NCBI RefSeq assembly: GCF_041248615.1
Contig: NZ_CP158426.1
Length of the DNA: 64,000 bases
Reading direction: 5' to 3' (one strand)
Source: Escherichia coli
GTDB lineage: Bacteria > Pseudomonadota > Gammaproteobacteria > Enterobacterales > Enterobacteriaceae
Position numbers and translations under genes: made by a program. Below, in pieces: positions 24,801-31,356 of this stretch; positions within the stretch are counted from its first letter, which is position 1, and each line of letters begins with the position of its first letter. The notes below the pieces were generated by a model. It was given only the letters and a program-made list of their open reading frames with translations. It was not told the DNA's origin and searched no databases.

Positions 24801-26559
24801 CGCAATCCTTTTATTTCTGGCGTACGCTCTTTAAGGCATCCGGCTGAGAGGCTAATGATCACTCCTCGCTCACAACGGACCTTCAGCTCAGCCGCTCCGG
24901 CCGCTTCATGCCATGAATGTACGCAGCCAGTCAGAATATTAAGGTGCGGATTTCAGTTCACTTGTCAGCCCAGTGATACAGGACAGTAATGACCAACAAT
25001 TTGGTATTGATACAACAAGTTGCGGCCCCGGTTCGTGGGGGAGATGAAACGACGGTAGCTGAAGTTACTGAAATGAAGAATTCAGAGAGACTGAATGATA
25101 TGCCTCACCTTTAGTGAATAGTGTAAAAACGGGAGACTCTCACCCGAGATTATCCACTCATGCTCAATGTATAATTTTCGTGCCCCTCACAGGTAAGAGC
25201 CGGATGCATTCGTTGTGTACGTTGCAGAATTGGTAACCGGGGACCCTGCAGTCTTTAACTCCGAGTCTTGTGCTGCTCATTTGCCACAAAATCCTGGTAC
25301 GCCAGCTCAATCATTTCATTCAACAGTTTTTTTGGGGGGCACCACGACTTCGGGCAATACTTTCAGGCTGTTTGTGGATTTTTCCGGACAGTTTCAGCGG
25401 AACGGAACCATCAGCACGTTCATCACGCCTTTTTTGTTGCTCCCGGGCACTTTTCAGTTCATCCACAATATAGCTGCTCTTCTCGCATTTTTGCCGATTT
25501 TAAAAATGCGAACAAAACATCCGTACATGATGTACAGATTAAACTGCCAGGGACTGGTGTCAGAAAGCCTCCGGTTAGCCTGCTCTTTCCGGAATGTGCC
25601 GGTTATGAAAAACCGGAAATTCAGTCTCTGTTGTAAGATGTACCCTCTGATACTACGTTTTCGTTTTCTCTGTGTATTTAACTCACTGTATTTATTGTCT
25701 TTTTAAGCCTGACTGATATTCTCCGGTCATAGTGTGCCGGATAGACATCCCGTAACCTTCTCATTTTTATATAAAAATACCTGCACTGTCTTCAGCGCAT
25801 CTGTCTCCTTTAAGTAAAAAATGTTTTCACGTATTGCTGTAAATTCATTTTAAATCAGTATGTTATCCTGATATTGCTGTCTCCTGGTTTGATGCGTAAT
25901 CGTTCTGCCTTTCTGGATGATTCTGGTGCTTCCGGGTGCATTCTCCTCTGCACATGCAACAGTTCGTCATCGCCACGTGCCCAAAAAGCATATAAAAACG
26001 AATCGAATCTGATCGTTTTTTCAATCGTTTTTCACAGGAATTTCGTAGGGTGTTCTCCGCTATAGCCTCCATATTTGCTGTCTTTTTCTTCATAAATCGT
26101 ATGCAATATAACCAGTCTGTCAAGACATCTTCCCTGCTGTTGAGGTGACGATCTCATTTCTGGTCTTTTCCGGGAGAGAGACGGTCAGATGAGCGAGCCG
26201 GATTTACTGCCAGAGGTACTCCCCGCGGCAGAAAATAGTGCTCCTGTTTCCGCAATCCGGGATCGGCAACGTCCCATGGTTAATGCCACTTGCAGCGTCA
26301 GGCACTGCAGGTTTACGTCGTGATCTGATTTCTTCTGCACTTATCCCGATCACGGAAGTTCCCCCTGCGCAGACATCGGTTCCTGCCGACATCTCACAAT
26401 ACCGCCAGGCTGTCATGCAGTAACACCCGCAATGCGGTCTGCGGTTTTAAGCGCACTCTCCTGTTTTCAGTGCACCGATAAGCGTTATAGAAAGTCTGGG
26501 GTGAGTTACTGAATGTCTGTTAAGTGGTGCCGTGGGTGGAGACTGCTTACTTTTCCACA

Positions 26560-27260
26560 GCAACTGCAGTCATTCAGGATGCTCAGGAGAGAATATGTCA
26601 ACGCCACGAGCCGGGCCATTTTCATGCCAGCCAGTATATTTTCTACACTGATGCAGTCTGATTTTCACCATTCCATCCTCACTGATTGTCGTGTTGTTTT
26701 GGGTCATCACCACAGCTTTCCGTTTCTCTTTTAATCGGTAACGCTCTCCTTTGATATTCAGCGTGGTTGAGTGATGCAGCAGTCAATCCAGGAGCGCTGT
26801 TGTCCGGCAACCACCATATCAACTTCTTCCCGGCGTGCCGGCGCTGGTATCCAGGCCGGGTTTCGAAGCGAAGCGTTCCTGACGGACTCATTGACATCCG
26901 GGCCGGATGTAGTCATGCAGCATGGAACGTCCGCCCGTATACACTGACGGCGTCCGGCCGTGTACAGAGATCGGTAAAATTCGTTACTACAACTGTTCCT
27001 GAATATCTGACGAAGAAACATTCAGCAATAACATCCGGCCGTGTACATCTCTTTTGCGGTGCAGGGAGCACTGTCGCCATGTACTTATTGTCACCAGGGT
27101 GAGGCATGTACCGCAGCATGCCAGCTCAGCAATGACAGGATGCCCTTAAGACATCCGTCATGGCTCAGTATGATGACGACGAACACGCTCTGCAGGTGAG
27201 CATGCAGGGCCGGGGGTATCATCATTTCCGTATTTTGCCGCACCTTCCGGAAACAACCGG
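26560..27260 (-). pseudogene. decayed coding region with frameshifts downstream of the 205-aa gene
   Basis: Several short minus-strand ORFs in different frames read like pieces of one protein (e.g. ...LNIKGERYRLKEKRKAVVMTQNNTTISEDGMVKIRLHQCRKYTGWHENGPARGVDIFSPEHPE*); no intact ORF. Confidence 0.3.
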
Positions 27261-27262
27261 CA

Positions 27263-27880
27263 TCAGTTACGGTTACCGTCAACCGTTGTGCGGTATGCCA
27301 GGAGCACGTACTGATCCATCAGATCCGTCAGTGCTGCGTTCTGCTTCTGACGGTCGATGATCCATTCCCCCAGCTCTTTTTCTGATTTCCGTTTCAGGTT
27401 CTCCGTCCAGTCGTCAAGGCTGTTTCCGGTCATTAAATCAAGCCAGCAAAGCCAGACCAGTTTGAGGCGCAACTCCGTGCCACCAAACTGACGGAAGAGG
27501 CTGATCAGTTTATTTGCCAGAGAACGCTGCCTCAGACGTTCACATTCAGACAGCAGAATCCCTTCCAGCATCGGATGATGAACCAGCAGATGTTCGCTGG
27601 TGCATAAGTTCACCACCAGATCATCATCCAGGGGCGGCGTGGCCCGTTTGTCAGAGCCATAAATCAGCCGGTGCAGACTCCGGGGTACGATGGCAATCTT
27701 CGGTTTTTCACCATTGAATGACACCCACCCGGGCGTCAGATTATGGAAGTAGTGGATATTCGGATGACACACGCCCCAGGATACGGCGTGCCGGGTGAAG
27801 CCGGTCAGCCATTTCTGGTAGCTTTCGTGGAGCAGCTCGTAACGGGTCTGATACTGTGGTTTCATTTTCATATTCCTCAC
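27263..27880 (-). CDS. hypothetical protein downstream of alpA
   Basis: 205-aa ORF co-directional with and 79 bp downstream of alpA; no family recognised. Confidence 0.55.
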   Translation of the reverse strand: MRNMKMKPQYQTRYELLHESYQKWLTGFTRHAVSWGVCHPNIHYFHNLTPGWVSFNGEKPKIAIVPRSLHRLIYGSDKRATPPLDDDLVVNLCTSEHLLVHHPMLEGILLSECERLRQRSLANKLISLFRQFGGTELRLKLVWLCWLDLMTGNSLDDWTENLKRKSEKELGEWIIDRQKQNAALTDLMDQYVLLAYRTTVDGNRN

Positions 27881-27958
27881 GGGGGATAACAGGCAGCAGA
27901 GTGCCGCCGGCAGGCCGGAGATTGCGTCTGCTGTGGGCGAAGGGCCAGTGGTTAAAAA

Positions 27959-28165
27959 TTACGGACGGGACTGTGCAATACGCGCCTGCAGCCAGGCTTC
28001 CACTTCACTTTTCAGCCAGCGGGAGCTGCGGCCGAGTTTGATGGGAGCCGGAAAGGCCCCATCCTTGATGAGCTTGTAAAACCACTTATCGGTCAGGCCG
28101 GTCAGCTGAGTGATAAACGTCATATCGACCATCTGGTCATCCATCAGCGAAACTGGGGTGGTCAT
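27959..28165 (-). CDS. alpA: AlpA-family phage transcriptional regulator (MerR-like HTH)
   Basis: 68-aa ORF; ...MTFITQLTGLTDKWFYKLIKDGAFPAPIKLGRSSRWLKSEVEAWL is the AlpA/Prophage_CP4-57_regulator pattern. Confidence 0.7.
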   Translation of the reverse strand: MTTPVSLMDDQMVDMTFITQLTGLTDKWFYKLIKDGAFPAPIKLGRSSRWLKSEVEAWLQARIAQSRP

Positions 28166-28548
28166 AAAAATCTTCTCCGGATGTTGTTAATCTCAGCCGG
28201 CGTTGATGATGAAAACAACGCACCACCTTCACCGGCATAACAACCGGGGAGAAACGTAAAAAATCAGTAGGGGAATATTCCTGCCAGGAGAGAAACTGTT
28301 GTGTACAGGCAATACAGGTTGTCTGTTTTGTCAGTGAAGCCGGTATAAACGGAAGATGATTTTGTGTTGCCGGAATATGGGATGGCGTTTTGCCGTGACA
28401 GGATCAGTATTTTCAGTGATGATTATTACTGTGCAGGGGAGTACCGGAGATAAACCACGCCCTGTACCTGCCAGAGCGGAGGTTTGTATTGACTGAACGG
28501 AAGATAAAGCGAGGTAAACACTGTTGCGGTGAGCGGAGAAGACTGAGA

Positions 28549-29340
28549 TTATTCTCTGTAATTACAAACAACAGTGATCTGATCCGGTTTTTTTACCGTT
28601 ACGGGTTTCCGGGGATCAATTTTATAGACCGGGGTAATGACCACGCCGGAATTTATGGAGAAAAGCGGGATCCAGCAATAAACGTCCGGATATTTCTGTG
28701 TCTCCGGAATACCTTTTGTGCCAGAGGCCATCAGATCTTTAACGCTCACGAAAAATGACTTCCGCAGATCAAAAAAGTACTCGTTATATATCACATCCTT
28801 TGCCAGCAGGATGACTGCATTACCAACAGCCGATTTTACAGGTGTTTCATCAGGTGGATTATCGTGATTGTATATTGTTCTTTCTATATAAATAAAACAG
28901 GCATATTTCGTCTTCTCCCCGGATAGTTGCATCTGGTATTCGCAAATGTCTTTGATATACCGACTTTCAACCCTTCCAATCATCTTATCCCGGCGATAGT
29001 GTCTTTTATGTTTCAGCGCGTACAGAACACCATTTGAACTGTCAAACTCCAGGACACTTCTGGTGAAAAGTTTGTTTTCCCAGATCTCCAGACAATACTT
29101 CTCTGCACTGACGACATTGCGTTTGTGGGGAAGATTCCGTTGATACACTCCATTTAATAAGCGTGACTGCAGTTCGCCTGCAAGTTGATAGTAACAGTTA
29201 ATGTCATTAAGGACAGGTGCTGTGGCGTTGAGTAATGTGTTGATTACCTTAGAGCGCGAAAGTTTGTGGGTATGACAGTACTCATCCACAATTCGCAGTG
29301 TCTCATCACTGGTCATATTGAAAGTTATACGTGTTGTCAT
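28549..29340 (-). CDS. hypothetical protein: N-terminal ribbon-helix-helix-like segment fused to a domain of unknown function
   Basis: 263-aa ORF in AT-rich DNA; N-terminus MTTRITFNMTSDETLRIVDEYCHTHKLSRSKVINTLL has a strand-helix-helix pattern; first gene of a co-directional string (263-aa gene, alpA, 205-aa gene). Confidence 0.55.
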   Translation of the reverse strand: MTTRITFNMTSDETLRIVDEYCHTHKLSRSKVINTLLNATAPVLNDINCYYQLAGELQSRLLNGVYQRNLPHKRNVVSAEKYCLEIWENKLFTRSVLEFDSSNGVLYALKHKRHYRRDKMIGRVESRYIKDICEYQMQLSGEKTKYACFIYIERTIYNHDNPPDETPVKSAVGNAVILLAKDVIYNEYFFDLRKSFFVSVKDLMASGTKGIPETQKYPDVYCWIPLFSINSGVVITPVYKIDPRKPVTVKKPDQITVVCNYRE

Positions 29341-29670
29341 GATGAAGTTTTCTGTTAATCATACTGGTTGATATGCATAACATTTCATAAAAAATACTGT
29401 TAATTCATATAATTGATTTTTTGACTGGTTTTATCCTCGTGTGGTGGAAAGCAGTATTACTGCCACTGTAGTCAGCATAAATCTATCACACAGAACCACC
29501 GAAAATGAAGCATTGCTCAGGGGGAAGCTGCCACTCGTATGAGTTCTCTGAACCATGATAACCAGTATTTTTCGTTTTGGGTGATTTGTTTATCGTTACA
29601 GCTACATACAGTTCATGTACCATTAAAAAATAATAAAGGTTAATTAGTATTATTTATAGAAGTATGTTTA

Positions 29671-29748
29671 TGTAATTCTACCGTGTAAATGAACCCTGTA
29701 ATTCTACCTTGTAAATACACCTTGTAACCAAGTCCTGTAGAAGTCTGT
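29671..29748. repeat. six tandem 13-bp iteron-like direct repeats (consensus TGTAAnTnnACCy)
   Basis: tgtaattctaccg / tgtaaatgaaccc / tgtaattctacct / tgtaaatacacct / tgtaaccaagtcc / tgtagaagtctgtc; tgtaattctacc occurs twice exactly. Confidence 0.5.
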
Positions 29749-30722
29749 CTCATAGAAGTATCTGTGCAGTGATATTCTCTGTAGTAGTACTTGTAACTCT
29801 GTTCTTAACTCTCTCTTCAGTAATGTAGTCCCGCAACACCTGAATATAAATCTGTAATGTTCACACACTGACTGTAACGTGCTTTGTTAAGTAATGTCTG
29901 CTATTTTTTTTCTGTTATTTTTCCTGTTGTTTTCTGTATTTTGTTGTATGGTGTAATAACTATTCTGAACCCGTCATCACCTTTATAGCTAAGAGTATGA
30001 CTTCGCCAGTGTTGATACTGTGGATAACGGTGATTAAGGAATTACTGTTAATGATCTGTTCCTGCAGCTCACCTGATGAGTTTTGGTAGTAATACGTAAA
30101 AGAGTATGCCTCATGTCATTAAAAAGTCTTCCGGAGTGTTGTTTAACCCTGTACCTCTGTTACTCATGTAGTACGTTGCGGAAAGCTACGTTAATTGTAA
30201 TATCTGGTTATGGCGTTATGCCTTCAGTATTAAAAACATCTTTTACCGGAGAAACTGGGAAGTGGAAAGGCTTTCGGGATAACGTCAGGCCATTATGACG
30301 ATATTACGTTAATCACAGTACAAGATAACGAGAGGGTAATGGAATTTTAAACCAGAGTAGTTCCACTGTTGTTCACTGGAAAAAGTGATTTCCCACGCGC
30401 GTTATAAGCTTACTCCAGAGGAGATGGAAGCCTTCAACTCTGCGGTCGATCACCGGCTGGCAGAACTGACCATGAACAAACTTTACGATCGTGTTCCCGC
30501 TTCAGTCTGGAAATATGTTACCTGATAAATGTTTCTGATGAAGTACAGTCGTCACAATGACATCACTTCAGATATTATCTGCGCTGTGATTGACTGTCAC
30601 GTATGCCGTTCTCTGTATGGTTCTGATACCCGGGTGTGGTCCCACTTTCTCTGTGGCGCCCGGGGAGTTGTGAACCTGCACGTCTTCGTGTGATAACGTT
30701 TTCTTCAAAAATTACGCCAGCG

Positions 30723-30754
30723 CTTCTTCCTGTGTTACAGAACACGAGGAAGAA
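30723..30754 (+). promoter_or_regulatory. hairpin sequestering the ribosome-binding site of the 30757 gene
   Basis: cttcttcctgtgtt-acag-aacacgaggaagaa: about 13-bp stem with one bulge; the right arm contains the GGAAG SD ending 3 nt before the ATG at 30757. Confidence 0.4.
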
Positions 30755-30756
30755 AC

Positions 30757-31356
30757 ATGAAGACTTACAACACCAATCCCGGTTACGAAATGGATCCCCA
30801 GCTCCTGACACACTTTAACCAGCATCTGGATTCATTATTCGGGGTATATTCGAAACTGTTACCGTTCAGAATGGATTTTGCTTACCGAAAAAACACCCTC
30901 AGCTACAGATGTGCCTGCAGGTACGCCATGTGCGCGGAGATACTGCGACTGATTAACGAAGTGGGAGAGAAACTGGTCGGGTATGCCTGGGTAATGGAAT
31001 ATACGGAACGTAAAGGGCTTCACATTCATTTTGTGGGCTATCTGAACGGTCAGAGCCACAGGAGTTCGTATCTGGTATCCAGATTGATGGGAGATATCTG
31101 GAGGCGGGTTACCGGGGGGGATGGTTACTACCACTGGTGCCGGTTTAATAAAAATTATCCGGTAAACATTAACCACGTCATTCACTATTCAGATCACAAA
31201 GCGGTGAATGCCTTACGCTATGCCATCAGCTACCTGGCCAAACGAGAACAGAAAGAATGTGGCATCATCCTGAAATGCAGCGGGCTTCCTGAAAAAAGTA
31301 ATCGGGGTCGACCGCGACTGGGCAGCCCCCTGCCGGAGACTTATTCTCTGGTGTAA
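30757..31356 (+). CDS. Gp2-like protein (inovirus Gp2 / YagK-YfjJ family, putative replication-initiator-like)
   Basis: 199-aa ORF; sequence pattern and context (integrase/alpA island) resemble YagK/YfjJ; assignment from memory. Confidence 0.5.
   Translation: MKTYNTNPGYEMDPQLLTHFNQHLDSLFGVYSKLLPFRMDFAYRKNTLSYRCACRYAMCAEILRLINEVGEKLVGYAWVMEYTERKGLHIHFVGYLNGQSHRSSYLVSRLMGDIWRRVTGGDGYYHWCRFNKNYPVNINHVIHYSDHKAVNALRYAISYLAKREQKECGIILKCSGLPEKSNRGRPRLGSPLPETYSLV

Follow-up and report, generated by a model that had tools for sequence, protein, structure and literature searches.

A small open reading frame in an Escherichia coli genomic island is very probably the 3' remnant of a pseudogenised hha2/hha3-type paralogue

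The small open reading frame (ORF) that precedes a Gp2-like gene in the 64,000-nucleotide stretch of Escherichia coli DNA analysed here (the window; NCBI RefSeq assembly GCF_041248615.1, contig NZ_CP158426.1) is very probably what survives, in apparently intact form, of the 3' part (codons 22-70) of an hha2/hha3-type paralogue that lies in an island and has become a pseudogene. Homology, synteny, the lesions themselves, the allele frequencies and the neutral-like substitution in N-terminally disrupted alleles are shown directly, and presumably no functional protein is made from the remnant. The first-pass annotation had placed the ORF between a GTG start at 30385, or an ATG at 30424, and a stop at 30523-30525, and these coordinates agree with the sequence and the ORF listing. 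The ORF is on the plus strand, with the GTG at 30385-30387, the internal ATG at 30424-30426 and a TGA stop directly followed by a TAA. The frame encodes 46 aa from the GTG and 33 aa from the ATG, and it is open back to 30361, its upstream bound being the TAG at 30358-30360. The same annotation had called the ORF unannotated, which proved mistaken, as RefSeq/PGAP already carries positions 30376-30525 of the window as WP_072146520.1, a 49-aa product with a CTG start named 'Hha/YmoA family nucleoid-associated regulatory protein'. The features of the region are as follows.

28549..29340, minus strand: hypothetical gene of 263 aa, divergent from hha and its left neighbour, also found in L001-L004 and L094.
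30330..30341, plus strand: ancestral ribosome-binding site (RBS; GAGAGGG) and ATG (30339-30341), both retained and aligning with the intact alleles.
30348..30350, plus strand: lesion 1, a TAA at codon 4 (AAA/AAG in the intact alleles), from the alignment.
Junction between 30357 and 30358, plus strand: lesion 2, a 14-bp frameshift deletion, from the alignment.
30358..30360, plus strand: lesion 3, the ancestral Gln12 codon CAG changed to TAG, from the alignment.
30361..30375, plus strand: decayed codons 13-17, FRRCS changed to FHCCS, from the alignment.
Between 30375 and 30376, plus strand: lesion 4, a 12-bp deletion of codons 18-21 (SRET), from the alignment.
30376..30525, plus strand: remnant ORF in its RefSeq form, CTG start, 49 aa, corresponding to codons 22-70 of the intact paralogue.
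30757..31356, plus strand: Gp2-like (YagK-YfjJ-type) gene of 199 aa, right neighbour, conserved.

The descent of the ORF from hha is documented at both the protein and the DNA level. ORFs of this size are common locally, with 62 ORFs of at least 25 aa overlapping the 5-kb stretch around it, and therefore its length alone is no evidence in its favour. This abundance would suit a chance ORF in AT-rich intergenic DNA, devoid of coding ancestry, but such an origin is refuted by the match to the Pfam HHA family (PF05321, E = 4.9e-20), by the 59% identity to E. coli Hha over Hha residues 23-71 (tblastn with the Hha query, E = 2e-18) and by the 148 of 150 nucleotides that are identical to the intact syntenic hha in L003. 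The Pfam match reaches 72 bits, above the gathering cut-off of 25, with partial coverage of the profile (positions 16-57 of 57). Against the NCBIfam model NF008191, 'hemolysin expression modulator Hha', the remnant scores 80.3 bits over profile positions 24-71 of 72, which is below the curated cut-off of 90 bits; the intact syntenic paralogue scores 105.8 bits. The earlier impression of a genuine small helical protein was thus right with regard to descent, since Hha is a four-helix partner of H-NS of ~70 aa, and wrong with regard to completeness, since the 5' third of the 70-codon hha paralogue has two stop codons and two deletions.

The lesions were read from a DNA alignment to the intact 70-aa hha of L003, L004 and E. 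coli 042 (L007). No intact 70-codon frame starts from the native ATG of the window copy, and translation from this start would end after Met-Glu-Phe. Arg14 and Arg15 of the ancestral paralogue are replaced by His and Cys. The frame is undamaged from codon 22 on, and this 3' part, equivalent to Hha residues 24-72, contains the GTG/ATG ORF of the first-pass annotation; it also holds the changes T29A and A36E, private to the window allele. Judged by this alignment, the ORF would be the undamaged 3' two-thirds of a dead hha paralogue. A search for the missing Hha N-terminus in a shifted frame upstream (tblastn, all three frames) gave nothing recognisable, because the deletions are accompanied by dense substitutions, as is apparent from the DNA alignment to the intact alleles.

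The signals for translation point in the same direction. The native RBS, whose duplex with the anti-Shine-Dalgarno (anti-SD) sequence has an energy of -6.3 kcal/mol, now serves a 3-codon ORF. The CTG at 30376 has no SD (+1.0 kcal/mol), the GTG at 30385 has a weak GGA (-3.3), and a strong SD-like AGAGGAG abuts the ATG at 30424 with zero spacing. A canonical start with an SD at workable spacing was found at none of the candidate positions. A functional 'mini-Hha', i.e. a 46-49-aa peptide lacking helix 1 and made from CTG 30376 or GTG 30385, perhaps by reinitiation, is very unlikely. In favour of such a peptide, the old RBS and start codon are close by, and only 25-34 nt separate the end of their 3-codon mini-ORF from the CTG and the GTG, so that a degree of reinitiation is conceivable; against it stands the lack of a usable SD at any candidate start. 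Its RefSeq treatment as an ordinary CDS, and not a pseudogene, also speaks for it.

The part of the protein that is retained was compared with 28 full-length family members. The remnant begins at column 24 of the family alignment, and the near-invariant residues K6, R14, C16, T21 and L22 are lost. The intact paralogue was modelled with AF2 at moderate confidence (pLDDT 65.6), with helices at 6-14, 19-30, 35-60 and 63-68; on this model, helix 1 would be wholly gone from the remnant, together with at least the first turn of helix 2. The complete four-helix fold, with the R-R-C cluster before helix 2, is not encoded by the remnant. The positions through which Hha is reported to contact H-NS are Glu25, Ala41, Asp48 and the C-terminal helix (PMC11825884), and the retained part covers the corresponding positions. 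In the 49-aa version starting at CTG, E23 and D46, which correspond to Glu25 and Asp48, are present along with the helix SVWKYV; with GTG 30385 as the start, E23 is lost. The retention of these contact residues favours a mini-Hha that would still attach to the H-NS N-terminal domain and serve either as a weak co-repressor or as a decoy titrating H-NS or Hha, a role that is equally hard to credit given the loss of helix 1 and of the near-invariant residues listed above. The Hha fold is marginal, and a single C18E change, next to helix 1, denatures Hha (PMC5155140).

The selection acting on the ORF was examined as pN/pS on codons 24-70 in 93 sampled alleles, with the 21-mer used for their ascertainment excluded. 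Variants that also occur in intact alleles comprise 3 nonsynonymous and 9 synonymous changes (pN/pS 0.10, p = 0.0002 versus neutral), whereas those private to N-disrupted alleles comprise 9 nonsynonymous and 3 synonymous changes (pN/pS 0.88, p = 0.74). The contrast between the two sets is significant at p = 0.039 (Fisher), with only 24 variants that are phylogenetically non-independent. The private set includes R48W, at a position invariant in the family, and its 3:1 ratio is the same for common and rare variants. Purifying selection on the ORF in the carrier lineages was therefore not detected in this small sample, and the near-neutral ratio, like the change at the invariant site, argues against a functional mini-Hha. 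The first-pass annotation had named the absence of protein-level conservation and of a translation signal as the outcome that would speak against the ORF, and this is largely what was observed: the conservation at the protein level is that of the ancestral intact gene, the changes arising in N-disrupted alleles are approximately neutral, and inspection of the start sites and of anti-SD pairing revealed no convincing start signal.

The comparison of the window with L003 leads to a similar result. The two sequences differ by substitutions at 1.3% of sites in the remnant ORF and again at 1.3% in the 231 bp of non-coding DNA that follow it, compared with 13.8% just upstream and 21.6% in the dead 5' part (30339-30375). 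The ORF is therefore conserved no better than the adjacent non-coding background, which is a further point against a functional mini-Hha. The apparent conservation of the ORF seems to be a recombination mosaic, to judge from these values, and not the effect of selection on the peptide. The clustering of lesions in the 5' part was also considered as possible evidence that the 3' part is under constraint, and it is better explained by the mosaic divergence (14-22% upstream versus 1.3%).

The low divergence that the remnant shares with the 231 bp downstream could also be taken to mean that the stretch matters as DNA or RNA, as a promoter or long 5' leader of the Gp2-like gene, or as an H-NS-bound silencing region. 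The AT-richness of the intergenic region (33-37% GC at 29300-30200) and two weak promoter-like sites at 30549-30578 would be in line with such a role, which is nevertheless most improbable. A permissive E-value search of 27500-31600 against Rfam gave no relevant match, the predicted RNA fold of 30320-30440 is no better than that of shuffled sequences (z = 0.28), the recombination mosaic is a simpler account of the shared low divergence, and the sequence of the ORF is not itself tied to regulation by any observation. The ORF has no consensus promoter directly before it, and no terminator-like sites were found. A non-coding RNA or cis element was rejected on these Rfam, folding, terminator and promoter scans. 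Over the scanned region 29300-30800 promoter-like hexamers numbered 10, against 4.7 expected. The AT-rich spacer of ~1 kb at 29300-30200, between the 263-aa gene and the hha remnant, diverges by 7-12% from syntenic islands, with many indels, and is a likely predicted target of H-NS. A 54-aa ORF at 30529-30693 on the plus strand begins directly after the remnant; it matches no family and probably does not code for protein. In P0018 and P0102, deletions have made fusions of hha with the frame of this ORF (...FLCGARGVVNLHV...).

The decayed gene is frequent in the species. The 561 bp around the ORF are present in 2227 of 5426 complete E. coli genomes, with 99.8% identity in CFT073 and Nissle 1917, and WP_072146520.1 is annotated in CFT073, Nissle 1917, O157:H16 Santai and others. 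Junction searches in the same 5426 genomes found the double-deletion junction of the window in ~585 and an intact 5' end in ~738; in ~1400, the match begins only at the base that follows the 14-bp deletion. A conserved 21-mer inside the ORF was also used to scan metagenomes. This yielded 80 loci, and 93 sequences were analysed. The window type accounts for 31 of these, and alleles with the 14-bp deletion only (the same deletion as in the window) for 37; a 1-bp frameshift is present in 5 and a replaced 5' end in 1, another 15 are intact, and 5' data are missing for 4. The N-terminus is hence disrupted in 73 of the 88 sampled sequences having 5' data. The 21-mer favours alleles with an undamaged 3' end and does not match the more divergent 042 allele. 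The same 21-mer gave 0 matches in the IMG/VR viral contigs scanned.

Several forms of the paralogue are found among the protein matches. Besides the intact 70-aa form, there are frameshifted forms with the 14-bp deletion (MEVKTRAVPSLFIP...), 65-aa forms in which the frame is restored by an A5-to-A4 change, fusions reading in from the end of an insertion sequence (IS), C-terminally broken forms, and window-type forms with extra damage, internally frameshifted (P0004, P0018, P0066). The hha2/hha3-type family appears from these forms to be decaying widely. One and the same 14-bp deletion occurs in island types with unrelated flanks, and the sequences suggest that it has been spread by recombination. 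The '74-aa rescued' alleles were considered as a product of selection for restoration and set aside, the extended frame starting with none of the codons ATG, GTG and TTG. Programmed frameshifting or transcriptional slippage that would rejoin the ATG frame to the hha frame in the 14-bp-deletion alleles was likewise rejected from the sequence, because a +1 shift would be needed, no known +1 motif is present and the A-runs are only 4-5 nt long.

The frequency of the disrupted alleles is also where a mini-Hha finds further support. N-disrupted alleles are common (~2000 complete genomes), and the 3' frame is open in 73 of 73 sampled N-disrupted alleles, in a sample picked by a 21-mer within the ORF that leaves only ~120 nt outside it. 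Should low-level synthesis of a mini-Hha keep the 5'-truncated alleles in the population, the peptide would bind the N-terminal domain of H-NS while the remaining Hha surface is missing, and would thereby modulate island genes as a natural dominant-negative or anti-silencing factor; this would explain why N-disrupted alleles with an open 3' frame outnumber intact ones; such maintenance is highly improbable. The existence of the further-decayed window-type alleles (P0004, P0018, P0066) argues against a functional peptide.

The ancestral 70-aa gene would have sat between the 263-aa and the Gp2-like genes of a CP4-57-like integrative island, and its product, by homology, would have been a four-helix Hha-family protein binding the N-terminal domain of H-NS, most likely strengthening the silencing of AT-rich acquired DNA. 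In the window, the native RBS and ATG are kept; translation from them would stop after three codons, with a frameshift, a second stop and a deletion beyond. The open frame that remains has neither a canonical start with a usable SD nor helix 1. In all likelihood the Hha-like function has been lost in this window. That a peptide without helix 1, made via reinitiation, still binds H-NS in some residual role is decidedly unlikely, in view of the neutral substitution pattern, the lack of start signals and the fragile fold.

The finding in itself matters little, as it concerns a pseudogene fragment of a described family that is already in RefSeq; the literature or RefSeq already contains the gene family, the island paralogues and the exact 49-aa product. 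A literature search for truncated hha alleles or for the WP accession returned one unrelated paper only and nothing relevant. The annotation, in turn, has practical consequences. PGAP lists the remnants at L001, L002, L005 and L094 as ordinary CDSs with CTG starts, not as pseudogenes; a pseudogene flag is carried by the hha copy of O104:H4 (L006), with its 1-bp frameshift. Remnants shown as ordinary 49-aa CDSs with a CTG start can mislead small-protein catalogues and pangenome counts. Moreover, the N-terminus appears to be disrupted in most E. coli copies of the hha2/hha3-type paralogue, both in the metagenomic sample and in complete genomes (~2000 versus ~740). Therefore, detection of hha2/hha3 by PCR or BLASTN, proposed as a virulence indicator, is no proof of a functional Hha paralogue.

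The island around the remnant is shared with other strains. In L003 (NZ_LR882973) and L004 (NZ_CP157955), an intact 213-bp hha occupies the exact position, with both neighbours of the window beside it, and the two neighbours, the 263-aa and the Gp2-like genes, are the same across L001-L004 and L094. The 263-aa protein has no Pfam or NCBIfam family match, and its gene is absent from the L005, L006 and L007 island types. The Gp2-like gene starts 231 bp downstream of the remnant; its 199-aa product has sub-threshold Pfam matches to REP_ORF2-G2P and YagK_YfjJ_C and is named 'inovirus-type Gp2 protein' in RefSeq. The window is otherwise collinear with CFT073 over 24866-34909 only, apart from a 1314-bp insertion at 31446-32759, 89 bp after the Gp2-like gene, which has a 9-bp target duplication and encodes a 402-aa Mutator-family (IS256-type) transposase (Pfam Transposase_mut, E = 2.7e-119). 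An ORF reading out from the end of this IS, at 32700-32873 (MTAWTVTSEKRHLHRILNRL...), has an N-terminus that nearly matches that of the 'Hha' fusion P0056 (MTAWTATSEKRYLHRILNRL-ISHTRYKL...), and therefore an IS of the same type has inserted inside hha copies of other strains.

Among known systems, the remnant can be compared with the Hha/YmoA/YdgT (Cnu) family as a whole, for which structures of homologues have been solved (1JW2/2MW2, 4ICG, 2K5S, 2JQT). It keeps the invariant core motif of the family and the C-terminal helix, but the conserved Arg/Cys cluster (RRC) is missing, as are helix 1 and the first turn of helix 2. Decayed copies of this paralogue in other strains are also closely related to it. 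The L005 type (WP_071527034.1, strain K-15KW01, 49 aa) has the same 14-bp deletion and the same 49-aa PGAP call with a CTG start, whereas the window allele has decayed further, with the additional TAA at codon 4, the Gln12 TAG and the 12-bp deletion; the hha pseudogene of O104:H4 is another decayed allele, a frameshifted one. The closest described relatives are Hha2 and Hha3, the island-borne paralogues of enteroaggregative E. coli 042 encoded by EC042_4516 and EC042_4796, and Prieto et al. (2016, PMC4864382) showed that one ag43 allele of this strain is modulated by hha, hha2 and hha3 alike. The gene at L007 of 042, an intact 213-bp hha with the product MEVKTKEDWLYQFRRCSSRETLEKVISHTRYKLTLAELEAF...WKYVT, is one of this hha2/hha3 pair. 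Unlike these genes, the window copy has no translatable 5' third, having two stops and the 14-bp and 12-bp deletions, and the ag43-type modulation shown for the 042 paralogues has no known counterpart for the remnant. The 042 island also differs in lacking the 263-aa gene and in carrying two extra small genes between hha and the Gp2-family gene; it has the same HTH regulator upstream of hha and a Gp2-family gene downstream, as in the island of the window. Over the retained part, the 042 copy and the window are identical at 136 of 150 nucleotides, and both this identity to the 042 genes and the location in a mobile island, beside AlpA-like and Gp2-like genes, place the window copy in the hha2/hha3 type.
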